From the NCBI GenBank assembly GCA_022825825.1, contig JAJDWA010000023.1, forward strand, positions 12,707-76,706: a stretch of DNA of 64,000 bases, given 5' to 3'. The stretch comes from Candidatus Poribacteria bacterium. Its GTDB lineage: Bacteria > Poribacteria > WGA-4E > WGA-3G. The notes under the pieces are model-generated. The model did no database searches, was not told the origin of the DNA, and was given only the letters and a program-made list of their open reading frames with translations. The first letter of the stretch is position 1, and every line of letters begins with the position of its first letter. Below, piece after piece: positions 5,410-28,280 of this stretch. Made by a program: the position numbers and the translations under genes.

Positions 5410-5418
5410 GATAAAAGG

Positions 5419-5658: not shown

Positions 5659-5684
5659 AATTTTCCACCTTTGTGTATAACTGG

Positions 5685-5757
<73 letters not shown>

Positions 5758-5775
5758 AAATCAGAGTGTGTCACA

Positions 5776-5848: not shown

Positions 5849-5858
5849 ATAAACCGAA

Positions 5859-5940: not shown

Positions 5941-5948
5941 TAATGGGA

Positions 5949-6020
5949 AGCTGACGAGAGGAATCGAACCTCCAACCTAGTGATTACAAATCACTTGCTC
6001 TACCATTGAGCCACGTCAGC
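5949..6020 (-). tRNA. tRNA-Thr (anticodon TGT)
   Basis: GCTGACG acceptor, anticodon stem AGTGA/TCACT, loop TTTGTAA, TTCGATT T-loop. Confidence 0.9.
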
Positions 6021-10847: not shown

Positions 10848-10962
10848 CGACTAAGCTTGAAAATAAGACTGGGAGATTGGAAGAGACAAGATCGTTATTT
10901 TCCTTCCTTTCTTTCCGGTCTTTTTAAATATAGAATTGATTTGCTAATATTGACTAAAGAGG

Positions 10963-12342: not shown

Positions 12343-12357
12343 AAGGAGTATAAATTC

Positions 12358-14562
12358 TTGAAACCTTACATACCTAATAAATTAACATGCACATACCCTT
12401 TAAGCTGGAACTCGGTCCCTTTCTATGTCATTATTCCTATTTTCGCAATGTGCGCGATCTTTTTCGTGCCGATCAGAACAACATCTGCACAGACTATCGA
12501 CATCCCGGACCTCAAACTCCGTAGTGCTCTTGAGTTAGCATTAGACAAGGAGGCTGGTGCCGACATAACTCAGGCGGACATGGCGAGTTTGCAAATATTT
12601 GATGCGTATGAATCCGGTATTCGCGATCTAACCGGTATGGAGTTTGCTATTAATTTGACAGAACTACATCTTGCTCGAAACCGTATAGTCGATGTGTCGC
12701 CCCTCAAAAATTTGACGAATTTGACAGTTCTGGATCTTTACCGCCACGATCTTACCCGCACATATAGAAAAATTTCCGATGTGTCGCCTCTCAGTGCTTT
12801 GACAAACCTGCAAGTGCTAAATCTTAGAGGTAATCGTATTACAGATGTGTCGCCCTTCAAAAACATGCCAAACCTGACATATCTGCGTCTTGGATACAAT
12901 ATCAATTTATCAGACATCTCGCCACTCAAAGATTTGACAAACCTGGAATACCTTGATCTTGAAACAAACATGGTATCTGATGTGTCCCCACTCAAAGATT
13001 TAACGAATCTCACTGAACTGGACCTTGATGAAAACAAGGTTTCGGATGTATCTCCGCTCAAGGATTTAATTAAACTGATAGTACTGGATATTTCCGACAA
13101 CGAAATATCGGATATATCTCCGCTCAAGAATTTGAAAAATATGGGGAATTTTGATCTTGACGACAATCAGATACCTGACGTGTCTCCCTTAAAAGATATG
13201 ACAAAACTTTGGCGTTTGGATGCCCATAACAATTTGATTTCGGATATATCTCCGCTCAAAGATTTGAAAAATCTGAGAGTGCTAAAACTTCATAAAAACG
13301 AGATATCAGACATATCGTCAATCGAGAATATGGTATTTATGACAGTGCTGGACCTTGATGGTAACAAGATAACAGATATATCGCCACTGAAAAACATGAT
13401 AAGAATGCGAAATCTGGACCTTGATGAAAATCGGATATCTGATGTATCCCCACTCAAAGACATGACAAGAATCCTAATCCTTGATCTTCACGAAAACAGC
13501 ATATCGGATATTTCCCCACTGAAAAACATGACGAATCTTACAGAATTGGATCTTGACGACAACAGGATATCAGATATATCCGCACTTAAGGATATGATAA
13601 ATCTGGCAATCCTCGATTTAGATGGTAACCAGATATTAAGTATTTCTCCACTGAGAAATTTGACAAATTTGGTTGAACTGGATCTGCACGACAATCAGAT
13701 ATTAGGTATTACTCACCTCAAAAACATGATAAATCTACAAATCCTGGATGTTTCCGATAACAAGATATCGGATGTGTCTCCACTCATGGCTCTGATAAAC
13801 CTGAAAATGCTTGATCTTAGTAGCAACCATATATCTGATTTTTCTCCGATTGCCGGGTTGATAGAGAATTTACTTCAATATGATAACAGCAATCAAACGC
13901 TTCTGACCTACAAACCGGCGGATGCAAATCGCGATGGTGTTGTCAATATAATAGATTTGGTATCAGTCGCATCCAACTTTGAGGACCCCGACTTAGCGGC
14001 ACTTGCACAGATGAACATCTATCCAGATGTCAATGATGATGGTGTTGTGGATATCAGAGATTTGGTCGCTGTTGCGACAGAGATAAATTCAGCTGCTGCA
14101 CCGACACTCAGCAAAAACTCCGCTGAAATCGCTAATCTGACAACTGAGCATCTCACACAGTGGATACAGCTTGCCAAGCAGCTTGATACGCACGATCCAC
14201 AGACACAAAAAGGGATTACTGTCTTGGAGCAACTCTTAGCGAACCTTACTTTGACAGAGACACTACCGAAAGAGACAGCACTGTTGGTGAACTATCCAAA
14301 TCCATTCAATCCTGAGACTTGGATACCTTATCAGCTGGCAAAGCCAGCATTAGTTGCTATCTCAATTTATTCTGCAGATGGAAAACTCATTAGAACATTG
14401 GAGTTAGGACAAGTACCTACAGGTGTATATCATCGCAAATCTCGTGCGGCATATTGGGATGGGCGGAATGAGTTGGGAGAACCTGTAGCAAGTGGAATAT
14501 ACTTCTATACGCTCACTGCTGATGATTTTACAGCTACCCGAAAAATGATCATACGGAAGTAA
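12358..14562 (+). CDS. secreted LRR protein with a dockerin-type pair and a T9SS/Por-type C-terminal sorting domain
   Basis: TTG start 9 nt after AAGGAG. About 19 LRRs. DANRDGVVNIIDL...DVNDDGVVDIRDL. C-terminus NYPNPFNPETWIPYQL...SGIYFYTLTADDFTATRKMIIRK matches the TIGR04183-like sorting domain. Confidence 0.85.
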   Translation: MKPYIPNKLTCTYPLSWNSVPFYVIIPIFAMCAIFFVPIRTTSAQTIDIPDLKLRSALELALDKEAGADITQADMASLQIFDAYESGIRDLTGMEFAINLTELHLARNRIVDVSPLKNLTNLTVLDLYRHDLTRTYRKISDVSPLSALTNLQVLNLRGNRITDVSPFKNMPNLTYLRLGYNINLSDISPLKDLTNLEYLDLETNMVSDVSPLKDLTNLTELDLDENKVSDVSPLKDLIKLIVLDISDNEISDISPLKNLKNMGNFDLDDNQIPDVSPLKDMTKLWRLDAHNNLISDISPLKDLKNLRVLKLHKNEISDISSIENMVFMTVLDLDGNKITDISPLKNMIRMRNLDLDENRISDVSPLKDMTRILILDLHENSISDISPLKNMTNLTELDLDDNRISDISALKDMINLAILDLDGNQILSISPLRNLTNLVELDLHDNQILGITHLKNMINLQILDVSDNKISDVSPLMALINLKMLDLSSNHISDFSPIAGLIENLLQYDNSNQTLLTYKPADANRDGVVNIIDLVSVASNFEDPDLAALAQMNIYPDVNDDGVVDIRDLVAVATEINSAAAPTLSKNSAEIANLTTEHLTQWIQLAKQLDTHDPQTQKGITVLEQLLANLTLTETLPKETALLVNYPNPFNPETWIPYQLAKPALVAISIYSADGKLIRTLELGQVPTGVYHRKSRAAYWDGRNELGEPVASGIYFYTLTADDFTATRKMIIRK

Positions 14563-14734: not shown

Positions 14735-15730
14735 ATGAAAAAAAACGCATTGGTTACTGGTGGAGCAGGCTTCATGGGTGCGCACGTCGTCAATGAATTG
14801 CTTCGCGACGGTGACCGGACAGTTGTTGTACTTGACGACATAAGCGGTGGATTTCGTGAAAATGTCAACCCAAACGCAACATTTGTCGAAGGAAGCATAC
14901 TTGATGTGCCACTAATAAACCGACTCTGTGAGCAGTATAATTTTAACTATATTTACCATCTTGCGGCGTATGCAGCAGAAGGATTAAGCCATTTCATCAA
15001 ACGATTTAACTATCAAAATAACCTTATCGGTAGCGTCAACCTGATAAACGCCGCAGTTAACTATAATGTGAAACGTTTTGTATTTACCTCTTCCATCGCT
15101 GTTTATGGCGAAAACCAACTTCCAATGCATGAAGGACTCATACCGATGCCCGAAGATTCTTACGGTATCGCCAAATATGCTGTGGAACAGGAATTGAACG
15201 TTTCTAAACGACTCTTTGACTTGGATTACACCATTTTTCGACCACACAATGTCTACGGAGAACTTCAGAATATTAGTGATAAGTATCGCAATGTTATCGG
15301 CATCTTCATGAATAAAATTATGCAGGATGAACCTTTAATCATATTTGGCGATGGAGAACAGACGCGCGCGTTTACACATATTGCAGATGTCGCACCGCAT
15401 ATCGCACGCTGCGTAGATATACCAGAAACCTCATGTGAAGTTTTCAATGTCGGTTCAGATAAACATGTTTCTGTCAATGAATTAGCACATCTCGTCATGA
15501 CAGCCATGGAAAAGGAGGCACCTGTAAAACATCTTCGAGAAAGGGAAGAGGTGAAGCATGCCTATTGCACACATGAAAAATTCCACAAGGTTTTTGGGGA
15601 AACGTCACAGGTTTCACTTCCAGAAGGTTTAGGTAGAATGGCAGCATGGGCAAAATCTGTCGGTTCGCGGGATTCTACCTTATTTAAGGGCATTGAAATT
15701 CGCAAAAACCTACCTGAAGGTTGGAAATAA
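14735..15730 (+). CDS. NAD-dependent nucleotide-sugar epimerase/dehydratase (extended SDR)
   Basis: VTGGAGFMGAHVV Rossmann motif and YGIAKYAVE (YxxxK). Confidence 0.9.
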   Translation: MKKNALVTGGAGFMGAHVVNELLRDGDRTVVVLDDISGGFRENVNPNATFVEGSILDVPLINRLCEQYNFNYIYHLAAYAAEGLSHFIKRFNYQNNLIGSVNLINAAVNYNVKRFVFTSSIAVYGENQLPMHEGLIPMPEDSYGIAKYAVEQELNVSKRLFDLDYTIFRPHNVYGELQNISDKYRNVIGIFMNKIMQDEPLIIFGDGEQTRAFTHIADVAPHIARCVDIPETSCEVFNVGSDKHVSVNELAHLVMTAMEKEAPVKHLREREEVKHAYCTHEKFHKVFGETSQVSLPEGLGRMAAWAKSVGSRDSTLFKGIEIRKNLPEGWK

Positions 15731-15754
15731 CCTTCGTCTCTGACCTGAATTGCC

Positions 15755-17071
15755 ATGGTGAAAAAACTCCTACGGCACAATACCTTTTGGGTAATGGCGA
15801 TTACCTCCGCTGGAATGGGATTGAGTCTACTCGTCCGTGCTATCTTGATTCCGAAACGGTTCGATATTGGCATAACATCAGACGCACTCATTACCGCATT
15901 AAAAGTTGTCCTGTTAGTCGATACAGTGGTACGAGAAGGTGCTAAGTTTAGTCTTGTTCCACTTTTTATCACATGTGAAAAGGAGATGACGGATACAGAA
16001 TACCAGCGTTTTACAAATAGTCTCCTCAATTTTTTGCTCTGTGTTGGCTTAGGCATATTTATCCTAATTGAACTGTGCGCCCCTTGGATTGTGAGGGCAT
16101 TATCGTCAACTATTGATGGGCAGAAGACGACGGTACTGTTGCGATTATGTGCGCCATTGATTATCTTTGGATTCGGCAGCACAGTACTTGGGGCGTTGCT
16201 AAACAGTCGGCAACATTTTAAAACAGTGGCACTCCGAAACGCACTACCCCCTGGTGCCGCCGCGGCAGTATTTCTACTACTATGGAATACAGAGAACTTG
16301 GAAAACTGGATTGCAGCCGCATATACGGGGGGTTTTATCTTATACTTTGGATGGTTGTGTATCGGAATGTCCCGAATAGGATATCGGTTTCAGTTTGAAG
16401 GAATCTCTTTGGACACGCTGCGTTCTTTGAGAAATACGGTTACTTTACCAACGCTCGGTTTCACTGTTAGGCAAGTTACAAACCGCTTATTGGTTGAAGT
16501 GTCCCTTGTCTCACAACTTGGAAGTGGAGCGGTTACGCTCTATGAATGCGCTTTTAGGATTTTCTCTGCATTACAGACACTCATCGGGATTAGTATTGCT
16601 ACAACTGGTTTGCCCGATATGTCAACTCAGGATGTGGAAGATAATCAACTCAAATTGAGACGCACACTCAATCGAAACATAGCAATAGCATTTTGCATCG
16701 CACTTCCAGTGACATTGCTACTCCTTTTGAGTCACACAAAAATAGTCTCGCTTTTGTATACAGGAAATAAATTTGATCAGGCGTCAATTCAACAGATAGC
16801 CAAAGTGCTTTTCTGGCTCAGCACAGGTTTGGTATTTTCTTGTTTAATACCAGTACTAAATGCTGGACTCTATGCCCAAAAAGCGTATCGTCTCATTTTT
16901 AGAAACATGGTAACAATGGCAGTTTTGAATTTTGCCCTGGCCTATGGATTTGTTAAAGCATGGGGACTTCTTGGTATTGCTTTAGCCGTTTCAGTCACAG
17001 CAGTTCTTGCTGTTGTAAATTTGACATATTTACTTCGAAAAACCAAAATTGTCTTGCTACAACGAGGTTAA
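15755..17071 (+). CDS. MOP-superfamily oligosaccharide flippase (MurJ/Wzx-like)
   Basis: 438 aa, about 12 TM. The N-terminus resembles MurJ/MviN (...LLVRAILIPKRFDIGITSDALITALKV...). Confidence 0.7.
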   Translation: MVKKLLRHNTFWVMAITSAGMGLSLLVRAILIPKRFDIGITSDALITALKVVLLVDTVVREGAKFSLVPLFITCEKEMTDTEYQRFTNSLLNFLLCVGLGIFILIELCAPWIVRALSSTIDGQKTTVLLRLCAPLIIFGFGSTVLGALLNSRQHFKTVALRNALPPGAAAAVFLLLWNTENLENWIAAAYTGGFILYFGWLCIGMSRIGYRFQFEGISLDTLRSLRNTVTLPTLGFTVRQVTNRLLVEVSLVSQLGSGAVTLYECAFRIFSALQTLIGISIATTGLPDMSTQDVEDNQLKLRRTLNRNIAIAFCIALPVTLLLLLSHTKIVSLLYTGNKFDQASIQQIAKVLFWLSTGLVFSCLIPVLNAGLYAQKAYRLIFRNMVTMAVLNFALAYGFVKAWGLLGIALAVSVTAVLAVVNLTYLLRKTKIVLLQRG

Positions 17072-17140
17072 AACATGACTTTAGTTGACTTGAAACCTAA
17101 ATGACGGCAAAATGCATCGGTTTTAATTCTGGGCGAATTT

Positions 17141-18112
17141 ATGAACACTCCTACAAAAAAAGTCAGCGATTACCGTTATCTCATTGTAGGTGGGACAACT
17201 AAGGCGGCTACTACGTCCTTGTTTGCATATCTCGCAGACCATCCCACAATTTGCGGAGCTACATATAAAGAAACACGATTTTTCCTCCACAGTGATTATC
17301 CGCTACCCTCAAAATACCGATACAGTGGAGATTTAGAGGAATACAATCTTTTGTTTCCGCTTTGTGATGAAGATCAAGTCCGCCTCGATTCAACACCGGA
17401 TTATCTGTATTGCCGACATGCGCTTGAACGAATTGCGAAATTTTTACCGCATACCAAATTAGTCTTTAGCCTTCGCGAACCAATTTCACGGTTAATCTCA
17501 TGGTATCGGTTCGCGAAACAGATCGGAAAATTGCGACAAGACCTCAGTTTTGATGCTTATGTAAAAAAACTTTTTGATGTAGAAAAACAATTTCAAATGG
17601 ACAGAGTGACCACAGATGAAAAGCCTATTCATGAACAGTATATGCAAGTACTTAGGCAAGGGTGTTATGCAATCTATCTGAAGGATTATTTTAAAGAATT
17701 TGGGGCAAACCGTCTCTATATCCTCTTTTATGAAGACCTTGCTGCGGACCCTTCAAAAGTTCTTACAGACTTATGCCACTTTGCTGGTATAGATGCTAAA
17801 TTTTACGAGGACTACGTGTTTAAAGTCGCGAATCGTACCGAAACGATGAAAAATGCTGAGTTTCATAAAAAGTATAGAGACATAAGATTTCGTTTACGTC
17901 AGTGGACACATAATAAACCGGTAATTCACAATCCATTAAAATTATTGAGACGAACAATTGAACCGCTCTATCTCAGATTAAACACACGTCCTACCGAGAA
18001 CGTCCACATGTCAGAAGGGACACGAAACCAATTGACAAATTACTACAAGAGCGATGTTAATAACCTTGCAAAATTAATCGGCAAAGCACCGCCTTGGGAA
18101 CCGTTTTCTTAG
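17141..18112 (+). CDS. sulfotransferase (PAPS-dependent family)
   Basis: 5'-PSB loop IVGGTTKAATTSL. 3'-PB region SLREPISRLISWY. Confidence 0.85.
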   Translation: MNTPTKKVSDYRYLIVGGTTKAATTSLFAYLADHPTICGATYKETRFFLHSDYPLPSKYRYSGDLEEYNLLFPLCDEDQVRLDSTPDYLYCRHALERIAKFLPHTKLVFSLREPISRLISWYRFAKQIGKLRQDLSFDAYVKKLFDVEKQFQMDRVTTDEKPIHEQYMQVLRQGCYAIYLKDYFKEFGANRLYILFYEDLAADPSKVLTDLCHFAGIDAKFYEDYVFKVANRTETMKNAEFHKKYRDIRFRLRQWTHNKPVIHNPLKLLRRTIEPLYLRLNTRPTENVHMSEGTRNQLTNYYKSDVNNLAKLIGKAPPWEPFS

Positions 18113-18158
18113 GTGTTGTAAGACAATTCATCCTGTTTTCTGTTCGAGGAGATTCGTT

Positions 18159-19064
18159 TTGGCTAATAAGTTAATTCAACTCATGATTGTAGGGACACAG
18201 AAGTCAGGCACGTCTTCGTTGCTGCGTTATTTAGCACAACATCCCGATATCTATACACATCCACAACCTGAGATGACTTTTTTCCTCCAAGATCATGAGT
18301 ATATATGCGGGTACGAATCAGCATTCGCAAAATACTTCCCTCAGTGCCCGGAGGACAAAAAGCTTATTGCCAAAAATGTGATGGTGATGCACTCACCAGA
18401 AATTATGCAACGAATTTATCAGCACAATCCAGAGATACATCTCGTTGTCCTTCTGCGAGAACCGGTAGCGCGAGCGTATTCTGCTTATTGGTGGGCAAGA
18501 CGTAGAGGTTGGGAAAACATCAAAACATTTGAAGAAGCACTCACTGCTGAGGAAGCGCGTCTAAAGGAAGATTGGTTTAAATGGCGACAGTGTGGCTATC
18601 GGCATAACAGCACTTACTACCCACACGTCAAGAATTTAATTAGCCAATTTGGAGAAAATCACGTTCATTGCATTTTGACTGATGAATTAAAAGAAAATCC
18701 GCAGTCTGTTTGTCAACGGCTTTTTAATCTTCTTAATATCCAACTCGATTTTGAACCTGTAGTAGAAGAACGGCACAACCAAGCAGCAATGCCTCGGTCT
18801 GAAAAGTTTAGTTTTCTGTTTACACAATTTCTATCATCTCACAATCCGCTGAAACGTGCGATTCGTAAACTTGTGCCAGATGCTGCTGCTTACAAATTGA
18901 GAAAAACAATCCTGAACTTAAACGATAAGTCTTTCACACCGCCGCCAATGAACCCGAAGACACGCGAACAATTGGAAAACTATTTTAAACCTTTTAATCA
19001 ACAATTATCAGAATTATTAGGACAAGATTTAACACATTGGGATACTCACAATGTTTCTATTTAA
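18159..19064 (+). CDS. sulfotransferase (PAPS-dependent family)
   Basis: TTG start after GAGGAG. IVGTQKSGTSSL 5'-PSB loop. LLREPVARAYSAYWW. Confidence 0.85.
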   Translation: MANKLIQLMIVGTQKSGTSSLLRYLAQHPDIYTHPQPEMTFFLQDHEYICGYESAFAKYFPQCPEDKKLIAKNVMVMHSPEIMQRIYQHNPEIHLVVLLREPVARAYSAYWWARRRGWENIKTFEEALTAEEARLKEDWFKWRQCGYRHNSTYYPHVKNLISQFGENHVHCILTDELKENPQSVCQRLFNLLNIQLDFEPVVEERHNQAAMPRSEKFSFLFTQFLSSHNPLKRAIRKLVPDAAAYKLRKTILNLNDKSFTPPPMNPKTREQLENYFKPFNQQLSELLGQDLTHWDTHNVSI

Positions 19065-19101
19065 AGTCCAAAAACGATCTCACCCAGTTTGTGCCTGAAA
19101 A

Positions 19102-20451
19102 ATGTTAATTATCTATTTTCTCACAGGATACGTCGCTTTTGAAGAGTTTGTACTCAAATTTCTACCTGTCAGTGATGCTGTATACTCCTATCTCAGATTC
19201 TTAGGGGAACTACTTATCTATGCAGCATTTGCCAAACTTGTTATTCACAAACTCTATAAAGGAATTCCTTTTGTCAAAACAGCAATAGATATCCCGGTTA
19301 TCGGCTTTTATGTCGTAGTTTTTATTTCTATGGTGATAAACCGTTCACCATTAATTGGGAGTCTTTATAATATCCGTCCATTCGCGCGGTACATAGTTCT
19401 CTTTTATCTGATTGCTAATTCACCTTTATCTGAAAAACGTATTGCGACTCTTCTACGGATAATTCTGTGCGTTGGCATAGTCCAACTCTTTACAGGTATG
19501 ATTCAATGGGCTGGTGGTCGAAGTGCTTTTGACTTCTTCCTCCCGCGTGCATCAACGCTTGAAGTGGGTGGGTTCACAAAAGAGTACAGATTACTTGAAC
19601 TTGGTCGCGAAATTGGAAGTATCTACGGCACTTTAGGTGACACGGTTATTTACGGCGTGTTTATGATTCTTGTCCTTGTCATCTTTCTTTCACGTGTAAA
19701 ACGATTAGCGTATCTGAATCTACTCAGTATAATTGTCCTATTAATGTTTATTGCGCGTTCTTATTCACGCGCGGCTACTTTTTCTGCGATTCTTGCCTGT
19801 GCTGCATGGTACTTCTTTCAATACGGTTGGAAAAAAACACTCCGTTTATCGTTAGCCATATTACTTGTCTTCGGGGTTGTCTTGGCAATAGTGAACCCAT
19901 TTGGCTTAGAATATGTTAATCCCAGAAAAGCGAAAGTTGGTTTGGTTGGGAACGTCACAGGTGTGTTCTCTGGTTCTTATGTGCGTGTTGCACAAAAACA
20001 GAGACTCGGTGCTTTAATTGGGAATGTGCCCACAGTTCTCGCCAACAAACCGATTTTAGGATATGGCGCAGATCAGAACAGCACGATTGAAAAACTGAAT
20101 ATGAGTAAACGTTCATTTCTCCTAAAAGTACTCAGTAAAAAAGGATTTAAAGATGTGTATTGGGTCGCTATCCTCTGTTTCTACGGGGTCCTAGGATTAG
20201 GCTTATTCGGCCTAATTTTCCTCCGTCTTTTTATAGCGGCGTTAAGTCTTTACAAGCGCGCTGTTAGTAAATACGCAAAAGAGATCGCAATGATAATGCT
20301 TTGTCTTGTTACAGTTACCGTGTTCCTACTCTTTTTTAATCGAACACTCGAATTTCGGGGTTACGGGTTCTATTTCTGGTTGTGCGCGGGGCTAATGTTT
20401 GCAAGTGATGCTTCTCTTAAAACCTATAAACCGCTCAGGATTACTTTATGA
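19102..20451 (+). CDS. O-antigen polymerase/ligase-family membrane protein (Wzy-like)
   Basis: 449 aa, about 11 TM. Central ...ARSYSRAATFSAILACAAWYF... resembles the Wzy_C/O-antigen ligase loop. Its stop overlaps the next start (ATGA). Confidence 0.65.
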   Translation: MLIIYFLTGYVAFEEFVLKFLPVSDAVYSYLRFLGELLIYAAFAKLVIHKLYKGIPFVKTAIDIPVIGFYVVVFISMVINRSPLIGSLYNIRPFARYIVLFYLIANSPLSEKRIATLLRIILCVGIVQLFTGMIQWAGGRSAFDFFLPRASTLEVGGFTKEYRLLELGREIGSIYGTLGDTVIYGVFMILVLVIFLSRVKRLAYLNLLSIIVLLMFIARSYSRAATFSAILACAAWYFFQYGWKKTLRLSLAILLVFGVVLAIVNPFGLEYVNPRKAKVGLVGNVTGVFSGSYVRVAQKQRLGALIGNVPTVLANKPILGYGADQNSTIEKLNMSKRSFLLKVLSKKGFKDVYWVAILCFYGVLGLGLFGLIFLRLFIAALSLYKRAVSKYAKEIAMIMLCLVTVTVFLLFFNRTLEFRGYGFYFWLCAGLMFASDASLKTYKPLRITL

Positions 20452-22073
20452 GACATATTAACCAGGCTCGAACTGAGAAACGAAAATTATTTTCATCATT
20501 GACATTCTTATTTTCCATCGTTTTAGTGGTATGTCTGCTACTCTTAGTGATAATTCGTGGCTGTGAAAACACATCGCTAATTTCCGAGGGAGTACGCTTT
20601 GAGGTTAACACGCAAGCAAAAACGCGTTTGAGAAAAGAACTTTTTGGCTTCAATACAAACATGATGAGTGGAGATTACGGCTATCTTGACGCAGATTTTA
20701 TTGCTTTAACAAAAGCACTTCAACCAAAAACATTAAGATTTCCCGGTGGTACAGTCGGCAATTTCTATCATTGGAAAATCAAGGGGTTTATTGAAAACGA
20801 GATGGGGTCAACTCTATATCCTCAACTTAATAAACGAAACAGAGGGAATTACGTGAAGCTCCAAAAGCGGCGGAACGGCATAATTTCATTTGACGATTTT
20901 ATGCAGTTATGCCAAGAATTGGATATAACGCCTATTGTCGTTGTTAATTTGTGGACGGGAAGTCCCGAAGAGAGTGCCGATTGGGTGCGTTACGCCAAAA
21001 CTAAAGGATACAAAATTACACATTGGGAACTTGGCAATGAGTATTACCTTCCGCATTATGCAAACAAATTTCGTACTGCTGAAATCTATATGAAGGAAGC
21101 CAAAAAACATGCCTTAGCGATGAAAGCGGTTAATCCTGATATAAAAGTGTCTGTATGTGCAACTCCTGTAGCTTTCCACAAAGAGGGTTGGTTAATAAAA
21201 ACAGCACAACGTAAATGGGATGAAAAACTCGATGAGAACACTTATCCCTCAACAAACAGCTGGTATGATGCCTACACTGTTCATGTCTACGCCTATAAAG
21301 CAGTACGAAAAATAGATATTGAGATGATGCGAGGTTACCTCTTTGGTTGGATTCACTTCGGCATAGATGAAGCAATGGAGTACTATGAGCAATTATTTCC
21401 AAATAAGGAGATGTGGGTAACGGAGTGGAATATTGCTAATCCCGCGAACCGCGTTGCCAACACACAGCTTCATGCTATGTATGTCGGTGATTTCTTTCTG
21501 AAATTGCTCAGTATACCAAACATAACACAAGCAAACTTTCACGTAATTACTGGGCCGGGCAAGGGATTTCCAGTTTTTTCGCGGATTACGCCTGCATCAA
21601 AACGCACTTTTTGGAAATATGGTGGGGAACCAGAATCTGATTATGGAGACACAATTCGCCGCACTGCCTACTACTCTTTTCAATTAATTGGTGAAGCATT
21701 TGCAGAATCAGATACGCAGTTTGCTGCATTACTACAAAATGAACCAACACTTGAAGGGCAATTGGAATATAAAGGTAAACAGATGACGGGGATTCAAGTT
21801 CAAGCGATCGGAAACACTGAAACTATCTACATTTTAATCAGCAATCGCACATCAGATGAACTGACACCACAACTTGCTATTGATGGCAAACGGTTGAAAA
21901 GCGAAGTCAGATATCGTCATGTTGCAAATGAGAGCCTCATCGCGACCAACGGTGGTAATGCTGAGATGGAAGGTTCTGGCAAAATTGAGGTGCAAATTCA
22001 GGAATGGACAGGAAATTCTGCAGAACTTACAATTCCTAAAAACAGTTTCGGTGTGATAGAGGTCAAAAAGTGA
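20448..22073 (+). CDS. membrane-anchored clan GH-A glycoside hydrolase (GH39/GH51/GH79-like; PslG-like role)
   Basis: N-terminal TM. LRFPGGTVGNFYHW. Candidate acid/base WELGNEYY and nucleophile WVTEWN. Confidence 0.6.
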   Translation: MRHINQARTEKRKLFSSLTFLFSIVLVVCLLLLVIIRGCENTSLISEGVRFEVNTQAKTRLRKELFGFNTNMMSGDYGYLDADFIALTKALQPKTLRFPGGTVGNFYHWKIKGFIENEMGSTLYPQLNKRNRGNYVKLQKRRNGIISFDDFMQLCQELDITPIVVVNLWTGSPEESADWVRYAKTKGYKITHWELGNEYYLPHYANKFRTAEIYMKEAKKHALAMKAVNPDIKVSVCATPVAFHKEGWLIKTAQRKWDEKLDENTYPSTNSWYDAYTVHVYAYKAVRKIDIEMMRGYLFGWIHFGIDEAMEYYEQLFPNKEMWVTEWNIANPANRVANTQLHAMYVGDFFLKLLSIPNITQANFHVITGPGKGFPVFSRITPASKRTFWKYGGEPESDYGDTIRRTAYYSFQLIGEAFAESDTQFAALLQNEPTLEGQLEYKGKQMTGIQVQAIGNTETIYILISNRTSDELTPQLAIDGKRLKSEVRYRHVANESLIATNGGNAEMEGSGKIEVQIQEWTGNSAELTIPKNSFGVIEVKK

Positions 22074-23128
22074 AATTGGAAAAAATGCTATTTGTCGTAG
22101 GGAATAGTAGAAGTGGAACTACAATGATGGGACGTATTTTAGGTAGACATTCTGACGTTTATACTTTTGGTGAACTCCACTTTTTTGGGCAGTTATGGTC
22201 TCCTGCCTCCTCATCTGAATTACATAAACAGGAAGCAGAAAAATTGGCTTCACAGTTATTTTGTATCCAACGTGAAGGTTACCGCACACACGGTAAACCA
22301 AATAATTTTCTGGAAGAATCTCAGCGTTTTCTCAGTGAATTACCCGAATTTCCAGCAACACCTGACAGTCTCTTTTCAGCGTTTCTCCAATACGAGACAG
22401 GACGAAACAGTAAAACCATCCCGTGCGATCAGACGCCTCGTAATATATTTTATATTGATGACATCCTACAATTTTATCCACAGGCAAAAATTATTAACAT
22501 GATTAGGGATCCGCGGGATGTGCTCCTATCCCAAAAGCAAAAGTGGAAACGCCGCTTCCTCGGCGGGACTGATATGCCAATGAAGGAAACGCTTCGTGAC
22601 TGGATTAATTATCATCCTATCACTATCAGCCGAATCTGGCGGACCGCTGTTACCGCCGCAGATAGATTTGTTAATAATGAACGAGTTACTTCAATTTATT
22701 TTGAAAAACTACTTGCACATCCTGAAGTCACTGTTTCTCACATTTGTGATTTTGTAGGTATTGAGTATGCTACTGCAATGCTTCAGGTGCCGCAAGTTGG
22801 TTCTTCTGTAGACACAGATAAACCTGATCAACTCGGTATAAACCCAGTTCGTGCAAACAACTGGCAGGTTAGGCAAAATATGGAGAAAAGTCCCGATCTT
22901 CCTTCGACCAAAAACCAAAGAGCACTCAGTAGTACTGAAATTTACATATCTCAAAAAATAAATAAAACACTAATGTTAAAGCATAACTATATTCCTATTT
23001 CAATTCGTCCAAACATATTTAGTTTAGCTGCCAATGTCCTCTCATTTCCAATGAAATTGGCAGCGGCATTTTTTTGTAACTTGGATAGGATTAAAAACAT
23101 CCGCGAAACTTTAAAAAGACGTTTGTAA
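22070..23128 (+). CDS. sulfotransferase
   Basis: GTG start overlapping the previous stop (GTGA). VVGNSRSGTTMMGRILGRH. IRDPRDVLLSQKQKW. Confidence 0.8.
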   Translation: MKLEKMLFVVGNSRSGTTMMGRILGRHSDVYTFGELHFFGQLWSPASSSELHKQEAEKLASQLFCIQREGYRTHGKPNNFLEESQRFLSELPEFPATPDSLFSAFLQYETGRNSKTIPCDQTPRNIFYIDDILQFYPQAKIINMIRDPRDVLLSQKQKWKRRFLGGTDMPMKETLRDWINYHPITISRIWRTAVTAADRFVNNERVTSIYFEKLLAHPEVTVSHICDFVGIEYATAMLQVPQVGSSVDTDKPDQLGINPVRANNWQVRQNMEKSPDLPSTKNQRALSSTEIYISQKINKTLMLKHNYIPISIRPNIFSLAANVLSFPMKLAAAFFCNLDRIKNIRETLKRRL

Positions 23129-23153
23129 CCCTAAGCTTGATCTGTATGAAAAC

Positions 23154-24155
23154 ATGATTGCCCAAATTAATTCTGATTATATCAAAACACGCCCAACAAA
23201 AGCACTAACTCGTCTTATGAGTTATGCCTTCTTTGAAGGTCGACCTGTAACAACAAAAGGTAGATGGATAAATCCGATCGTATTTTCTATCTTGAAAACG
23301 GCTGCGAGAAGTAATAGACGATTTACACCTATTGAAAAACCTATCTTCATTCTTGGTACGGGGCGAAGTGGAACAACAGTCTTAGGGATTGTACTTTCTA
23401 TGCATAAAGATGTGGGGTATTTAAATGAACCAAAGGCGATTTGGCATCTCATTTATCCGCATGAAGACATCATTGGGAATTATAGTCTTAGCCCTGCAAA
23501 GTACCGCCTCACCTCCGAAGATGCAACAGACGCAATGTGTCAACGTGCTGCCCAGATGTTTGGGGCATACTTGTCGGTAACTGGGTCGAAACGCTTGGTT
23601 GATAAATATCCTGAACTGATTTTCAGAGTAGATTTCGTCCGCTCCGTATTTCCCGATGCGCGGTTCATTTTTCTTGTACGAAATGGGTGGGATACGTGTC
23701 ATTCAATTGCTAATTGGTCAAAACGACTCGGTGTTCAAACCGATGGCGAGAGACACGATTGGTGGGGAGTGGACGACCGTAAATGGCAATTGTTAATGGA
23801 TCAGTTGGTTACTGCAGATGTTGACTTAAAAAATGTTATTGAAGATGTCCAAAATTTTGATAGGCATTTAGATAGAGCAGCCGTTGAATGGGTGTTGACC
23901 ATGCGTGAGGGGTTACATCTAATGAAAAACTTATCCGATTGGACCTATAAGATTCATTTTGAAGAATTAACATCAAAACCTGAAGAAACACTTTCACCGC
24001 TATGTGAATTCTGCGAATTGCCAACTGATAGAACATTTCTAAATTATGCGCGACATACTCTAAATCCTGTGCCGCCAAGAGAACCTTTTGATTTACATCC
24101 GAAAATAGCACCTATTTTCTATGACACGATGGCAAGATTAGGGTATAATACGTAA
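23154..24155 (+). CDS. sulfotransferase
   Basis: ILGTGRSGTTVLGIVLSMH 5'-PSB loop. FLVRNGWDTCHS 3'-PB-like segment. Confidence 0.75.
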   Translation: MIAQINSDYIKTRPTKALTRLMSYAFFEGRPVTTKGRWINPIVFSILKTAARSNRRFTPIEKPIFILGTGRSGTTVLGIVLSMHKDVGYLNEPKAIWHLIYPHEDIIGNYSLSPAKYRLTSEDATDAMCQRAAQMFGAYLSVTGSKRLVDKYPELIFRVDFVRSVFPDARFIFLVRNGWDTCHSIANWSKRLGVQTDGERHDWWGVDDRKWQLLMDQLVTADVDLKNVIEDVQNFDRHLDRAAVEWVLTMREGLHLMKNLSDWTYKIHFEELTSKPEETLSPLCEFCELPTDRTFLNYARHTLNPVPPREPFDLHPKIAPIFYDTMARLGYNT

Positions 24156-24271
24156 GAAAACTTTCAAAGTATATTAGTAAAAAATGTTCTACCTGATAAA
24201 AATAAATTATTCTATAGCAAATAAAAATTAACTTCAGCTGATTTGTGTGATTTTCCGGAGGCAGAAAACGT

Positions 24272-25912
24272 ATGATTTTACGCATTTTTCTACTATTTTG
24301 CATAGTTACATATTTCTGGTGTTTACCGTGCGCCGATGCCGCATCACTTATAAACGTTCCACTTAACCCAGATATAACCGATTTTAATAGTGAAACCTAC
24401 CGCTTTATTCATCGTTTACTTAATAAACGTGTAGTGTCCGGTGTAGCGCGAGGTTCTTTACCGTTTACGCGAAAACAGGTTGCATCTTTTCTGGTGGAGG
24501 TGTCTCAAAAACTTGAGAGTGGTGAACTAACATTGAGCATCAACGACCAAAAACGCTTGAATGAATTGTTAGCCTTTTATGCAGAGGCTGGAACACAAAC
24601 GCCTCCGAATCGGCGATCACATTTATTTACTCTCAGTGACGACGCCACCTATCGCTTTTCATTTGATTTAAGAGCAAGACAACGAACAATCACCAGATTA
24701 GTGGACAACATGTCCGAAAAAGAACCTGTTGAAGGTACTATGTTTGTGACAACATGGTTCCCACATCTTTATGGACAAGTCAAAGAGGGATTTGCGTTTA
24801 CAACAAATATGGCATATAGGTGGTTATACGGTGATGTTTTTGACGATTTTTATCCTGATGAATCAAAATATCGGCAACTGGAGGGTGAACTGAAAATTGG
24901 GCAGAAATATCGAACGGCGATCAATGCTTACCTAAAGTTCAACTTTCCTTGGTTTGAGTTACAACTTGGACAAGACAATCTTCAGTGGGGACCTGGTTAT
25001 CACGGCAATCTATTGATTTCTTCGAACCCTATTGCTATAGACATGCTGAAGTTGCAAACTACATACAAAACGACTACTTTCACCGCGTTCACCGGTATTT
25101 TAGAAGACAACGCAGAAGACATCAATGAGAAGTATATTTCTGGACATAGGCTTGAGGGATATTACTGGGATAGGATTGGATTTGGACTTTCCGAAGTAGT
25201 CGTGTATGGGAACCGTTTTGAACCAGGATATCTAAACCCGATCAATATCTATCTGATTAACGAGCAGACAATTTCGCGGGCGGATGGCCGTGTCCCTGGC
25301 AGTGGCGACAATCTCTTTTTAAGTGCTGATATACGGGTACGTCTAATAGACAATTTTGAAATATATGGTGAGTTGATGGTTGATGACGGAAATCCAATAT
25401 CCGTTTTTAAGCATTGGGATACGAAGTTTGGGATCCTTGGAGGAATTTATATTACCGATCCATTTGGACTGTCGGATACTGATTTCCACGCCGAATACGC
25501 TTTTATCAACCAATATGCATATACACACGTCACCCCAGTAAATGTTTACAAACACTTTACGACACCGATTGGACATCATATCGGTTCTGATGCAGATAAT
25601 TTGTGGATTGAACTACGGCGGCGATTTACCGATAAACTTGAAACTGTTTTTGGCTACGAACTTGAACGCCACGGCCAAGGAAATATAGACAAAAATCATT
25701 CGCCTGACGCCCCGAAAGATGATGTGTGGACTCCACTCTCCGGGATTACACAAAGTGAGCATCGCTTAAAGATCGGTTTTAATTGGGTTACCATTGGTCA
25801 TTATTCATTCTACGGTGAATGGGCGAGGATTTGGAGACGAAACATTGAAAATCGTCAAGATGTACATGAAACTGGGAATGAAATTCAAGCGAAAGCATTA
25901 TATAGATTTTAA
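24272..25912 (+). CDS. outer-membrane capsule-assembly protein, Wzi-like
   Basis: Signal peptide. LQLGQDNLQWGPGYHGNLLISSNP resembles the Caps_assemb_Wzi signature. Aromatic-rich, beta-barrel-like C-terminus ending in F. Confidence 0.5.
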   Translation: MILRIFLLFCIVTYFWCLPCADAASLINVPLNPDITDFNSETYRFIHRLLNKRVVSGVARGSLPFTRKQVASFLVEVSQKLESGELTLSINDQKRLNELLAFYAEAGTQTPPNRRSHLFTLSDDATYRFSFDLRARQRTITRLVDNMSEKEPVEGTMFVTTWFPHLYGQVKEGFAFTTNMAYRWLYGDVFDDFYPDESKYRQLEGELKIGQKYRTAINAYLKFNFPWFELQLGQDNLQWGPGYHGNLLISSNPIAIDMLKLQTTYKTTTFTAFTGILEDNAEDINEKYISGHRLEGYYWDRIGFGLSEVVVYGNRFEPGYLNPINIYLINEQTISRADGRVPGSGDNLFLSADIRVRLIDNFEIYGELMVDDGNPISVFKHWDTKFGILGGIYITDPFGLSDTDFHAEYAFINQYAYTHVTPVNVYKHFTTPIGHHIGSDADNLWIELRRRFTDKLETVFGYELERHGQGNIDKNHSPDAPKDDVWTPLSGITQSEHRLKIGFNWVTIGHYSFYGEWARIWRRNIENRQDVHETGNEIQAKALYRF

Positions 25913-26066
25913 GCCGTAACATAAGGATTCACTTTTATTTTCTCTTGCCATTAGGGAATTGCGAACTTCAATTGGAACAACATTTTAAATGAAGATTCAT
26001 AGTCGTTAAAGCATCAAAGAAATTGTTTTTTTAGATACATCTTGGTATCATTTTAAAGGATTTAAG

Positions 26067-27188
26067 ATGAAAATTCGCGTGTTAGGTATTCGTGGGCTTC
26101 CGGGAACTTATAGTGGGTTAGAAACCATCATGGGGGAGCTTGCACCGCGCTGGGTAGAAGCAGGGCATGAGGTCACCGTCTATTGTCGAAAAGCAGTTTT
26201 CAAAGAGAGGCCCTCCGAATGGAAAGGCATCAAGTTAGTCTATCTACCCAGCATTGAACATAAAGTATTTAGTACCCTCAGCCACAGTTTTTTAGCAACT
26301 TTACACGCTTCGTTTTCTCCTTCTGACGCTATTCTTGTATGGAATGCTGGCAATGGTCCGTTTGGTTGGTTTTTCCGTATTGCTGGTAAAAGTGCTGTTA
26401 TCAACGTTGATGGAATGGAATGGCTTCGTCCAAAGTGGAAAGGTATAGGTGCTGTTTATTTTAAATGGGCAGCTAAAATGGCTACTTCCGCTTTTCCAAT
26501 TGTGATTACCGATGCCGAAGAAATGAAGAGACTTTACCTTGAAGAATTAGGGGCCGAAACTACATATATCGCTTACGGAGCAAACATTGAACCGTCTGAG
26601 CATCCTGAAATCCTTGAAAATTATGGGCTTGAATCACGGAATTACTATCTGATCGCGAGTCGTCTTGTACCCGATAATAATGCGGACCTGATTTTGGAAG
26701 CATTTGTTAACTCAAATAGCCAGAAAAAACTTGCTATAGCAGGGGGGGCAGACTACAAAGGCAACAAACTTGAAAATCAATTTTTAGATAAATTGAAAAG
26801 CATTGCTAATGAAAACGTCATGTTTCTCGGACACATTGATAATTCAGAACATATAAAGGAACTGCACCATCACTGTTTCGCTTACATTCATGGACATCAA
26901 TTCGGGGGTATCAATCCTTCCATTTTGAAGGCGTTAGGGTTTTCTAACTGCATCCTTGCTCTAAATACACCATTCAACCATGAAGTCCTGGAAGGCGGTA
27001 CTTACGGTGCACTCTTTGATAAGAATTCAGAATCTCTCAAAACTGTGATAGAAGCATTAGAACAGAATCCAGAAAAGGTCGACGATTTTCGCCGCCGCGC
27101 TCCTGAACAGATACGAAAACGATTCAACTGGGACCATATTGCCAAACAATATATTGATGTTTTTGAAAAACTACAAAAGAAAAAGTGA
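26067..27188 (+). CDS. glycosyltransferase family 4 (DUF1972 N-domain plus GT1-type C-domain)
   Basis: MKIRVLGIRGLPGTYSGLETIMGELAPRWVEAGHEVTVYCR is a typical DUF1972 start, followed by a GT-B C-terminal half. Confidence 0.85.
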   Translation: MKIRVLGIRGLPGTYSGLETIMGELAPRWVEAGHEVTVYCRKAVFKERPSEWKGIKLVYLPSIEHKVFSTLSHSFLATLHASFSPSDAILVWNAGNGPFGWFFRIAGKSAVINVDGMEWLRPKWKGIGAVYFKWAAKMATSAFPIVITDAEEMKRLYLEELGAETTYIAYGANIEPSEHPEILENYGLESRNYYLIASRLVPDNNADLILEAFVNSNSQKKLAIAGGADYKGNKLENQFLDKLKSIANENVMFLGHIDNSEHIKELHHHCFAYIHGHQFGGINPSILKALGFSNCILALNTPFNHEVLEGGTYGALFDKNSESLKTVIEALEQNPEKVDDFRRRAPEQIRKRFNWDHIAKQYIDVFEKLQKKK

Positions 27189-27218
27189 AATCTACTAATT
27201 TGAGTAGGGTAAAGGATA

Positions 27219-27878
27219 ATGGCACATTTGCCAATAAAATTTAGTGTCTCCAAACCTGACTTTGCATATATGAATGACACAGCACAGCCTTCAGTTGAAA
27301 GACTTTCCTCCTTCTACGCAAAGCGAGGAAAATATTTACTTGATTTTGTGGCAGCATTTTTATTGATACTTATTTTTGCGCCACTAATGATTCTAATTTC
27401 AATATTGATTAAATTATCTTCGCGTGGGCCAATTTTTTTCTCACACAAGCGGGTTGGAATAAATAATAAACTTTTTATTATTCACAAGTTCAGAAGCCTT
27501 CATATTGATACGCCCTCCTATTCAGAAAAACCGGATTCAACAGAAGATGTTCGCATTACATCAATCGGTAAATGGATTCGCAAAACAAGTTTAGATGAAT
27601 TACCCCAGTTATTTAACGTTATTAAGGGGGAAATGAGTCTCGTCGGACCTCGTCCAGAAATGCCTTTCCTTGCTGAAAATTACGAGGAATGGGAAAATAA
27701 ACGCCATCTCGTGCGCCCCGGCATGACGGGACTTTGGCAATTAAGTCCACGCCGCCGTGGTTCAATACGTGAAGGTATTCCTGTTGATCTGGAATACATT
27801 GAGAATTTGTCTCTGTGGAACGATTTTAAAATATTGCTACGGACGTTCAAGGTTTTTTGGGATGACAACACCTACTAA
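27219..27878 (+). CDS. undecaprenyl-phosphate sugar phosphotransferase (small monotopic PGT, WbaP/EpsL-like initiating enzyme)
   Basis: KRGKYLLDFVAAFLLIL...SLDELPQLFNVIKGEMSLVGPRPE...RPGMTGLWQ. The start may be the ATG at 27270. Confidence 0.9.
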   Translation: MAHLPIKFSVSKPDFAYMNDTAQPSVERLSSFYAKRGKYLLDFVAAFLLILIFAPLMILISILIKLSSRGPIFFSHKRVGINNKLFIIHKFRSLHIDTPSYSEKPDSTEDVRITSIGKWIRKTSLDELPQLFNVIKGEMSLVGPRPEMPFLAENYEEWENKRHLVRPGMTGLWQLSPRRRGSIREGIPVDLEYIENLSLWNDFKILLRTFKVFWDDNTY

Positions 27879-27917
27879 CTTATAGCAGATTGATTCTCAC
27901 CTACAATTGAAACAGAT

Positions 27918-28280
27918 ATGAAACTAACTCTTACGAATCTCAGAAAGATTTTACAGTGCAGTTTTAGACTCAAGTGTCCACGGTGTAGCAAAGGGACACT
28001 CTTTCAAAAACATTTCACGATGTTTTCCCATTGCACCGAATGTGAGTTAAAGTTTGAACGTGAGCAAGGATATTTTATAGGTGCGATGTATATCAACTAT
28101 GGTGCAACAGTTCTCCTCACCTTTCCAGGCTATTTTATTCTTGATATTTTCACATCTATCCCTTTCTTATTCAACTTTGGCGTGTGGGGTTTAGTTTCCG
28201 CCGTTTTTCCGATCTTTTTCTATCGCTATTCAAAAAGTTTGTGGTTGAACTTTGACTATGCGTTTAACCCAAGCAGTTAA
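27918..28280 (+). CDS. DUF983-like Zn-ribbon membrane protein
   Basis: CPRCSKGTLF...CTECELKF followed by 2 TM segments. Confidence 0.55.
   Translation: MKLTLTNLRKILQCSFRLKCPRCSKGTLFQKHFTMFSHCTECELKFEREQGYFIGAMYINYGATVLLTFPGYFILDIFTSIPFLFNFGVWGLVSAVFPIFFYRYSKSLWLNFDYAFNPSS

Follow-up and report, generated by a model that had tools for sequence, protein, structure and literature searches.

A conserved Wzx/Wzy-type locus of Candidatus Poribacteria with four sulfotransferases, predicted to make a multiply sulfated surface glycan

The DNA analysed in this study, referred to below as the window, is a 64-kb stretch which derives from Candidatus Poribacteria in a sponge metagenome, and which carries a polysaccharide locus with four sulfotransferase genes (ST1 to ST4) at positions 14735–27878 (Table 1). 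According to the open reading frame (ORF) listing and to Pfam and NCBIfam scans, all genes of this block lie on the + strand, the sulfotransferases being interleaved with genes for a flippase, a Wzy-like membrane protein and a membrane-anchored glycoside hydrolase (GH), preceded by an epimerase gene and followed by genes for an outer-membrane protein, a glycosyltransferase (GT) and a phosphoglycosyl transferase (PGT). The gene order, co-orientation and families proposed in an earlier account of the same DNA, which was made without database searches and is called here the sequence-only reading, are thereby confirmed.

Table 1. Features of the locus and its upstream neighbours, with the median identity of the Poribacteria orthologs to the window proteins
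Feature	Position	Strand	Evidence	Median identity
Three secreted "cargo" genes, filling the variable hot-spot between block A and block B	10236..14562	+	Pfam	
Cargo: lamin-tail (LTD) gene	10236..10847	+		
Cargo: leucine-rich repeat (LRR) + dockerin gene	10963..12342	+		
Cargo: LRR + dockerin + FlgD_ig + sorting tail gene	12358..14562	+		
GalE-like NAD-dependent UDP-hexose 4-epimerase (Epi; predicted sugar-nucleotide supply)	14735..15730	+	PF01370 2e-47	85%
MurJ/MVF-like MOP-superfamily flippase (Flip; predicted Wzx role)	15755..17071	+	PF03023 2.5e-50, MatE	67%
ST1, sulfotransferase, heparan sulfate (HS) 3-OST/NDST-like	17141..18112	+	Sulfotransfer_1/_3	66%
ST2, sulfotransferase, HS 3-OST/NDST-like	18159..19064	+	Sulfotransfer_1/_3	72%
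Wzy_C-family polytopic membrane protein, presumed repeat-unit polymerase	19102..20451	+	PF04932, sub-threshold	80%
Membrane-anchored clan GH-A hydrolase, 541 aa	20448..22073	+	GH79n weak; predicted fold	70%
ST3, sulfotransferase, TPST/CurM-ST-like	22070..23128	+	PF13469 1e-29	66%
ST4, sulfotransferase, TPST-like	23154..24155	+	PF13469 1e-24	72%
Block B/C boundary: promoter-like site 24121-24149 + 116-bp spacer	24121..24271	+		
Wzi-like outer-membrane protein	24272..25912	+	PF14052 (Caps_assemb_Wzi) 2.4e-25	71%
GT4a, DUF1972-type GT4, Cps2T/WchF-like	26067..27188	+	PF00534 + PF09314	87%
Small monotopic PGT, presumed initiating, 219 aa	27219..27878	+	PF02397 (Bac_transf) 5e-62	82%
DUF983 zinc-ribbon/transmembrane protein	27918..28280	+	PF06170 4.5e-8	

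Two 4-nt overlaps in the sequence, ATGA at 20448-20451 between the Wzy-like and hydrolase genes and GTGA at 22070-22073 between the hydrolase gene and ST3, had been read as signs of translational coupling. Both are present, the second being lost if ST3 starts at ATG 22085, which would leave an 11-nt gap and may be the case since residues 1-5 are not conserved. The remaining intergenic spacers of the block measure 24-154 bp, and the GC content stays at ~0.40 throughout the locus and the DNA on either side. Of the promoter-like sites in this region the best, a sigma-70-like match of 11/12, lies at the boundary between ST4 and the Wzi gene; the promoter and terminator scan as a whole was not enriched over shuffled sequences, and is taken as a weak hint only.

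All four sulfotransferases score above the Pfam gathering score for PF00685 and/or PF13469 and match solved sulfotransferase structures in the PDB, meaning that they are not unrelated P-loop proteins, an outcome for which the sequence-only reading had allowed; the PF14052 search which it had proposed for Wzi likewise gave a score above threshold. By their solved relatives they form two pairs. ST1 (3rnl, 6e-15; HS 3-OST3, 1.5e-8) and ST2 (3rnl, 7e-33; HS 3-OST1, 9e-17) resemble the bacterial protein 3rnl, the animal HS 3-O-sulfotransferases and NDST, while the nearest solved relatives of ST3 (4gox, 5e-7; TPST2, 3e-6) and ST4 (TPST1, 4e-9) are tyrosylprotein sulfotransferases and the CurM/OLS polyketide sulfotransferases. 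Pairwise identity among the four is only 18-26%, which indicates four old, distinct enzymes and not recent duplicates.

The invariant motifs are GGTTKAATTS (a variant P-loop, KAATTS), KETRFF and LREPISRLISWY for ST1, as found over 76 sequences; GTQKSGTSS (P-loop KSGTSS), PEMTFF and LLREPVARAYSAYWW for ST2; GNSRSGTTM (P-loop RSGTTM), GELHFF and MIRDPRDVLLS for ST3; and GTGRSGTT (P-loop RSGTTV), NEPKAIW and LVRNGWDTCHS for ST4. The earlier statement that each enzyme keeps a GxxxSGTT/S 5'-phosphosulfate-binding (5'-PSB) loop and a 3'-phosphate-binding (3'-PB) segment therefore needs amending for the first of these elements in ST1, and stands for ST2 to ST4 and, with respect to the R-x-P/G...S segment of the 3'-PB type, for all four. 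Three elements, namely the 5'-PSB loop, the Glu that occupies the position of the catalytic base in the solved relatives, and the R...S of the 3'-PB segment, do not vary over the orthologs of about 75 species in any of the four enzymes. ST1 and ST2 have the fold, the 5'-PSB and 3'-PB elements and the Glu before an HFF-like motif in common with the animal HS 3-O-sulfotransferases, NDST and 3rnl, from which they differ in being only ~20-30% identical, soluble and devoid of a Golgi anchor. ST4 has a conserved 60-aa N-terminal extension, and ST2 an alternative start at ATG 18183. We consider all four to be bona fide sulfotransferase-fold proteins with predicted activity. No signal peptide and no transmembrane segment is predicted in any of them and, to our knowledge, 3'-phosphoadenosine-5'-phosphosulfate (PAPS) is found only in the cytoplasm, which fits a cytoplasmic, PAPS-dependent sulfation of the lipid-linked unit before flipping.

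The hydrolase is anchored by an N-terminal transmembrane helix (residues 12-46, N-in by the positive-inside rule), the remainder being periplasmic according to the topology prediction. Its AlphaFold2 (AF2) model (pLDDT 69, pTM 0.74) consists of this helix, a (beta/alpha)8 barrel and a C-terminal beta-sandwich, and in Foldseek it retrieved GH51 first (3s2c, E 5e-22, TM-score 0.6-0.68), followed by GH44, GH79 and GH86, all of them at 10-16% identity. Identity to the GH51 structures is 13-16%, and a profile search reached GH51 at 2e-11; by sequence the protein is not a GH51 enzyme (NF051901, 48 bits against a cutoff of 625). The clan GH-A signatures WELGNE (N197/E198) and ITEWN (E326) are invariant and, judging from these motifs, N197-E198 would follow strand 4 and E326 strand 7 of the barrel. 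The anchor, the barrel fold and the N-E/E catalytic pair bear out the earlier assignment as a membrane-anchored clan GH-A hydrolase, and the model predicts an intact enzyme of an unclassified family, attached to the inner membrane and facing the periplasm. Periplasmic glycan-cleaving enzymes occur inside exopolysaccharide (EPS) operons, such as PslG (GH39, clan GH-A), BcsZ and AlgL. These are likewise membrane-anchored or periplasmic glycan cleavers encoded with polymerisation genes, PslG also belonging to clan GH-A; the Poribacteria protein differs from them in that its fold is nearest to GH51, no family cutoff is reached and its substrate would be a sulfated glycan.

The Wzy-like protein, with ~10 hydrophobic segments, scored 24 bits against PF04932, below the gathering score of 31.7. 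Its AF2 model, made from a 17-sequence alignment, is unusable (pLDDT 38.6), and its profile found no match in the PDB. For the epimerase, the score against TIGR01179 (galE) was below the cutoff (138 bits) and the best PDB match was 4zrm, a UDP-glucose 4-epimerase (9e-52). The flippase, with at least 8 hydrophobic segments, also remained below the cutoff of its model (TIGR01695, 170 bits against 235); its assignment to the MOP superfamily is upheld by PF03023 and MatE and can be refined, the protein belonging to the MurJ/MVF-like rather than the PST branch. Wzi has an N-terminal hydrophobic signal peptide and matches PF14052 with 89.8 bits (cutoff 30.1), GT4a scored 182 bits, below the cutoff, against NF046071 (Cps2T; Cps2T/WchF being transferases of the second-sugar type), and the PGT contains a single hydrophobic hairpin (36-74) and aligns with the TIGR03025/WcaJ/WbaP models over their C-terminal catalytic domain.

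Relatives were sought by scanning one genome per GTDB species, which gave 149, and the best 80 loci, all from Poribacteria, were examined, identities per locus being taken from tblastn of the window proteins. The core, running from the flippase through ST1, ST2, the Wzy-like protein, the hydrolase and ST3 to ST4, is complete and co-linear in 74 of the 75 species loci with enough flank. The sole exception (L019) is missing the flippase, ST1 and ST2 upstream of the Wzy-like gene, which a rearrangement or a problem of the assembly could explain. Homologs of the GH-like protein, and likewise of the Wzy-like protein, number in the hundreds; the best 120 for either protein are 66-93% identical, every named one among these belonging to "Candidatus Poribacteria". 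The epimerase is present in 59 Poribacteria loci (79-96% identity) and has no match in ~15 loci with flank; Wzi is 65-92% identical in 49 loci, GT4a 84-96% within the phylum, and the DUF983 gene, directly 3' of the PGT gene, is syntenic and 64-80% identical in 26 loci. For comparison, the flanking SDR and TonB genes are 82% and 41% identical to those of the window. The locus is therefore a near-universal feature of Poribacteria and not a strain-variable EPS locus. In the Wzy-like protein, 75-96% identical over 77 Poribacteria species loci, 232 of 449 residues are invariant across the species of the phylum, which argues for a fixed, important envelope component; such conservation is the opposite of what serotype-variable capsule and O-antigen loci usually show, and is uncommon in a Wzy locus.

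The distance between ST4 and the Wzi gene varies from 60 bp to 7.2 kb across 57 loci, and Wzi-GT4a-PGT(-DUF983), present in 25/25 loci with room, consequently constitutes a second conserved block (block C). The single 13-kb block of the sequence-only reading is thus co-oriented as stated and made up of two conserved sub-blocks, 14735-24155 and 24272-28280. Additional GTs concealed in the gap between ST4 and Wzi were considered and rejected, as the gap holds cargo genes only and never GTs, the inserts encoding secreted LRR, sulfatase or WD40 proteins with a dockerin + FlgD_ig + sorting-tail module. Across Poribacteria these cargo genes gather at two insertion hot-spots on either side of block B, and their products combine varied N-termini (lamin-tail, LRR, sulfatase, WD40, FG-GAP) with a common C-terminal module of dockerin, FlgD-Ig and a Por_Secre_tail-like part, as seen upstream of the epimerase in the window, where Por_Secre_tail/CHU_C matches were obtained with Pfam, and at L079:18437-20659, L068:14424-18464 and L092:20533-21203. 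An origin of the window from Bacteroidota, at which the Por_Secre_tail/CHU_C matches would hint, is contradicted by the homologs and the 80 genome loci, which are all from Poribacteria. The set looks like a family of proteins with a sorting signal; Poribacteria are not known for a type IX system.

Outside the phylum, an exhaustive search of representatives at 50% identity, in which Poribacteria collapse to about one cluster, yielded full-length relatives of the hydrolase at 38-45% identity, those named belonging to gammaproteobacteria that live as endosymbionts in Lamellibrachia, Escarpia and Seepiophila tubeworms, and to a Thermodesulfobacteriota metagenome-assembled genome (MAG); more distant relatives were found in a Deltaproteobacteria MAG, in Sumerlaeota and in a Spirochaete. 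In the complete genome CP053680.1 (L087, ex Lamellibrachia) the cassette comprises genes for GT4-DUF1972, Wza, Wzc, Wzx, a sulfotransferase, CysQ (TIGR01331, 332 bits, cutoff 229), the hydrolase, a Wzy-like protein of 468 aa, a further GT4 (GT4b) and three more sulfotransferases. GCA_044229695.1 (L084) adds Wzz, Wzi and Wza, the Thermodesulfobacteriota MAG (L086) a full-length PGT and Wzz, and the Deltaproteobacteria MAG (L089) Wza, Wzi and Wzz, together with a bifunctional ATP-sulfurylase/APS-kinase encoded between GT4 genes.

One-to-one counterparts were assigned by tblastn. ST4, which aligns from end to end with 50-56% identity in each of the four loci L083-L086, is the best-conserved component of the cassette across phyla, followed by orthologs of ST2 (39-50% in L083, L084 and L086) and ST3 (31-43% in L083-L085) and by counterparts of ST1 (32-33%) and of the hydrolase (39-42%). 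GT4a orthologs are 28-39% identical in L084-L086 and flippase orthologs 35-38% in L084 and L085, those in L083 and L087 matching PF03023 and PF01943. The Wzy-like orthologs (29-47%) adjoin Wzz or Wzc genes in L084 and L087, and in L089 a 425-aa gene without matches occupies the corresponding position, also beside Wza and Wzz. The neighbours in these non-Poribacteria genomes supply the export machinery and PAPS metabolism which the Poribacteria locus lacks locally, and this association of the orthologs with Wza/Wzc/Wzz and with CysQ or PAPS synthase is the strongest argument for the Wzy_C protein being a polymerase in a PAPS-dependent capsule or EPS pathway. Not every relative of the hydrolase marks such a locus, since at ~32% identity the association with sulfotransferases is lost (L090). 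In the tubeworm symbiont L087 a gene for a PEP-CTERM/exosortase-dependent surface protein (17620-18378) comes after the cassette, and that of another relative (L088) abuts a large polyketide synthase (PKS) gene (15972-19294).

The GT4b gene, which encodes a 400-aa GT4 and is placed after the hydrolase and Wzy-like genes in each of the five cassette-bearing loci outside Poribacteria, defines a third block (block A). Upstream of the epimerase, 25 loci of Poribacteria contain homologs with 44-53% identity to the non-Poribacteria GT4, either adjoining the epimerase gene or separated from it by cargo genes. GT4b forms part of the cassette in at least 27 Poribacteria loci, and within the phylum it is 76-98% conserved. 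In every locus with enough flank, a NosD/beta-helix lipoprotein of ~295 aa (55-75% identity) is encoded directly upstream of GT4b (L051, L055, L056, L068, L069, L072, L091:9108-9995, L092:9095-9994). It was found neither in the window nor in the non-Poribacteria cassettes, and could be a pathway accessory of the lyase or epimerase type.

In the nearest relatives the order is beta-helix protein, GT4b, four cargo genes, epimerase and flippase. The window is co-linear with L091 from about position 10210 on (83-92% DNA identity), homology ending where L091 has GT4b, and no remnant of GT4b was found anywhere in the 64 kb. The junction with the upstream PPIase gene at this breakpoint lies inside one independent Logan contig, so that it is not the product of misassembly. 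The sequencing run of the source metagenome, checked with L015 as a proxy for L091, contains a full-length GT4b on a 6.4-kb contig with a depth of 24, compared with 27-29 for the window contigs, and the flank of this contig was not found in the window; GT4b is thus most likely encoded elsewhere in the same genome, having been displaced by a rearrangement. A 201-aa ORF without Pfam match downstream of the locus (30826-31431, minus strand) has its homolog upstream of GT4b in the closest relative (L091:3789-4351, 69% DNA identity), a placement which hints at an inversion and deletion that removed block A from its original site. The count of one GT plus one PGT in the sequence-only reading consequently holds for the 64-kb window and not for the system, to which a third conserved transferase, GT4b, belongs, and the conclusion drawn from it, namely only two glycosyl-transfer steps and hence a short repeat, is not borne out in that form. 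Three transfers and four sulfotransferases are a better estimate for the system.

Evidence consistent with transcription comes from four sponge metatranscriptomes which contain the ortholog locus of Poribacteria WGA-3G, the contigs of one of them covering every bin from the epimerase to GT4a in pieces of up to 1.95 kb at ~99% identity; for the window's own sequence no RNA runs are listed. With respect to sulfate supply, assimilatory sulfate reduction has been reported for Poribacteria in a study that compared 62 of their genomes (PMC8546597), and sat (K00958) and cysC (K00860) are scored as present in most of the later genome columns of its KEGG table, the assignment of these columns to Poribacteria being based on the text of that paper (PMC8546597). 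The window also encodes a formylglycine-type sulfatase with an SGSH_C domain (61911-63620) and a double rhodanese (48209-49057), and Poribacteria seem equipped both to add sulfate to glycans and to remove it.

Taken together, these data suggest, with a probability that we would put at a little over 70%, that the locus provides the main part of a pathway of the Wzx/Wzy type, through which Poribacteria obtain a conserved, multiply sulfated surface glycan. From the genes present, their motifs and predicted topology, their conservation, their synteny across phyla and the RNA-derived contigs on the ortholog locus we infer the following steps, and with them the sugars, the number of sulfates and the location at the cell surface. 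The PGT would load a sugar-phosphate onto undecaprenyl phosphate at the cytoplasmic face of the inner membrane, GT4a would add a sugar and GT4b most likely a further one, with the GalE-like epimerase providing the nucleotide sugar. The four cytoplasmic, PAPS-dependent sulfotransferases would then sulfate different positions of the lipid-linked unit, the MurJ-like MOP flippase would transfer the charged unit to the periplasmic side and the Wzy_C protein would polymerise it, while the translationally coupled GH-A hydrolase may trim or release chains in the manner of PslG or BcsZ. Finally, Wzi would hold the polymer at the outer membrane, with exporters of the Wza/Wzc type encoded elsewhere.

Several points weigh against this interpretation. 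Neither the window nor the 1.67 Mb of Poribacteria flanks yielded sat, cysC, cysQ or other PAPS synthesis genes, or wza, wzc or wzz. The search for PAPS and Wza/Wzc genes proposed by the sequence-only reading was successful in the homologous cassettes (export genes in L084, L086, L087 and L089, CysQ or PAPS synthase in L087 and L089); the genes for polysaccharide co-polymerase (PCP) and outer-membrane polysaccharide export (OPX) proteins may be encoded elsewhere in the Poribacteria genome. ST3 and ST4 are nearer to protein- and polyketide-type sulfotransferases than to those acting on carbohydrates, the stoichiometry of sulfation is not readable from gene counts, the RNA support consists of assembled contigs with possible DNA carry-over, and there is no chemical evidence for any sulfated polymer from Poribacteria. 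Lastly, given its sub-threshold Wzy_C match, failed AF2 model and lack of a PDB match, the Wzy-like protein taken by itself fits a polymerase, a ligase or an O-oligosaccharyltransferase (O-OTase), and of the earlier claim of a Wzy-like polymerase it is the membership in a Wzy_C-type membrane protein family, with orthologs beside Wzz/Wzc, that stands, on a match below threshold.

The more serious of the two alternatives for this protein, although an unlikely one, is a WaaL-type ligase, which would transfer a short sulfated oligosaccharide onto lipid A-core, giving a lipooligosaccharide or O-unit exported by Lpt. This would explain why no Wza/Wzc/Wzz is encoded locally, PCP/OPX genes being absent from the window and the Poribacteria flanks, and PF04932, weak as the match is, is the O-antigen ligase family; the conservation of 75-96% also fits core structures better than it does Wzy polymerases. 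However, the orthologs adjoin Wzz or Wzc and Wza in L084 and L087, as does the 425-aa gene in L089, the capsule-anchoring Wzi is part of the conserved block C, and a translationally coupled chain-trimming hydrolase makes little sense for a ligase of single units.

Considerably less probable is a PglL-type O-OTase, by which the sulfated unit would be attached to the secreted LRR, sulfatase and WD40 cargo proteins. Wzy_C domains do occur also in PglL/PilO O-OTases, and cargo genes with dockerin, FlgD_ig and sorting tail flank block B at both hot-spots in many species, yet such genes are missing from the non-Poribacteria cassettes, where the orthologs adjoin Wzz, Wzc or Wza, and the hydrolase and Wzi fit a polymer better. 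The synteny seen in other phyla speaks against both the ligase and the O-OTase. Least probable of all is a scenario in which a neutral polysaccharide locus merely happens to house the sulfotransferases, some or all four of them modifying something other than a glycan, be it a membrane lipid, a small metabolite or protein tyrosine. In its favour are the TPST and CurM/OLS relatives of ST3 and ST4 and the PKS gene beside the cassette of L088. Against it, in 74/75 species the four genes are interspersed among those for the flippase, Wzy-like protein and hydrolase, closely spaced or overlapping; in four other phyla their counterparts likewise lie among GH, Wzy and GT4 genes; and ST1 and ST2 best match carbohydrate (heparan sulfate) sulfotransferases.

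Among described systems, a Wzx/Wzy-type pathway for a multiply sulfated glycan is most readily set beside the synechan (xss) cluster of Synechocystis sp. PCC 6803, which has 2 sulfotransferases, 8 GTs and a sulfate:sugar ratio of 2:8, and for which it was stated that no sulfotransferases had been found in other bacterial extracellular-polysaccharide clusters (PMC8205485). This likeness is one of gene content, synechan and the rhizobial systems being taken as analogues of the Poribacteria locus. The xss cluster is likewise of the Wzx/Wzy type, with sulfotransferases of distinct subfamilies, an OPX gene away from the cluster and a presumed cytoplasmic sulfation. It differs in its 2 sulfotransferases to 8 GTs, as against 4 to 2 transferases in the Poribacteria window (3 with GT4b), in having a PCP and the XssQ/R/S regulatory set, neither of which is seen in the window (no PCP, STAND or two-component regulators), in lacking a GH or Wzi partner, both of which the Poribacteria locus has, and in being plasmid-borne in one strain, whereas the Poribacteria locus is chromosomal and near-universal in its phylum.

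A putative cluster for sulfated glycosaminoglycan (GAG) in Pontiella sulfatireligans F21 has one sulfotransferase among eight hexosaminyltransferases, and GAG-active sulfotransferases were stated not to be known from prokaryotes (PMC7356697). As likened by its described architecture, this marine bacterium degrades and also makes sulfated glycans, its sulfotransferase lies among GT2/GT4 genes and its GAG-like sulfated exopolymers were detected chemically, while a Wzy/GH/Wzi arrangement has not been reported for it. Sulfotransferase-bearing polysaccharide regions have also been noted in mat MAGs (PMC9723792). None of these three has the architecture described here, its ratio of sulfotransferases to GTs, a coupled GH-A hydrolase or phylum-wide fixation.

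The group 1 (K30) capsule of E. coli uses Wza-Wzb-Wzc-Wzi with Wzx/Wzy. Wzi, a Wzx-like flippase, a Wzy-like protein and a PGT are common to K30 and the Poribacteria locus, to which L087 and L089 add Wza and Wzc or Wzz, while the Poribacteria locus is without Wza/Wzb/Wzc, is conserved and not serotype-variable, and makes a polymer predicted to be sulfated. Our literature searches returned no description of this locus and nothing on sulfotransferases in Poribacteria or tubeworm symbionts. Few bacterial sulfated polysaccharides are genetically defined, and among the described systems compared here this cassette has the highest ratio of sulfotransferases to GTs; it is fixed in a phylum of uncultured sponge symbionts and common to chemosynthetic tubeworm symbionts and free-living relatives. 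This makes it a testable candidate with regard to the envelope chemistry of Poribacteria and to the way in which symbionts of sponges are distinguished from bacteria taken as food, and its four putative soluble carbohydrate sulfotransferases and sulfated-glycan hydrolase could serve the microbial production of GAG-like polymers. As a speculation, and a rather doubtful one, Poribacteria and the independently related tubeworm symbionts might wear a GAG-like capsule with multiple sulfates, the product of an old cassette of four sulfotransferases, Wzy and GH that has been shared horizontally. By its likeness to the sulfated extracellular matrix of the animal host, this capsule would allow the bacteria to escape phagocytosis and so to persist in host tissue, and it would be the counterpart of the symbionts' many sulfatases.

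Elsewhere in the window, a dense cluster of eukaryote-like repeat proteins (38014-47438) contains two paralogous Rieske-domain proteins of ~580 aa (38014-39750 and 41941-43689), interleaved with ankyrin, WD40, helix-hairpin-helix + ankyrin and MORN proteins. A double-domain 6-pyruvoyl-tetrahydropterin synthase, a GTP cyclohydrolase I and an SDR are encoded in a row at 49450-51690, which suggests a pterin or queuosine-precursor pathway. An 897-aa ORF at 57744-60437, with a weak HSDR_N_2 match only, lies in the stretch of lowest GC content (0.35 at 58-60 kb) and may be foreign DNA or a defence-related gene. Finally, five tRNA genes (5419-6020) stand beside secE-nusG-rplK-rplA-rplJ on the minus strand at 2107-6020, a housekeeping context which confirms the chromosomal location of the locus.

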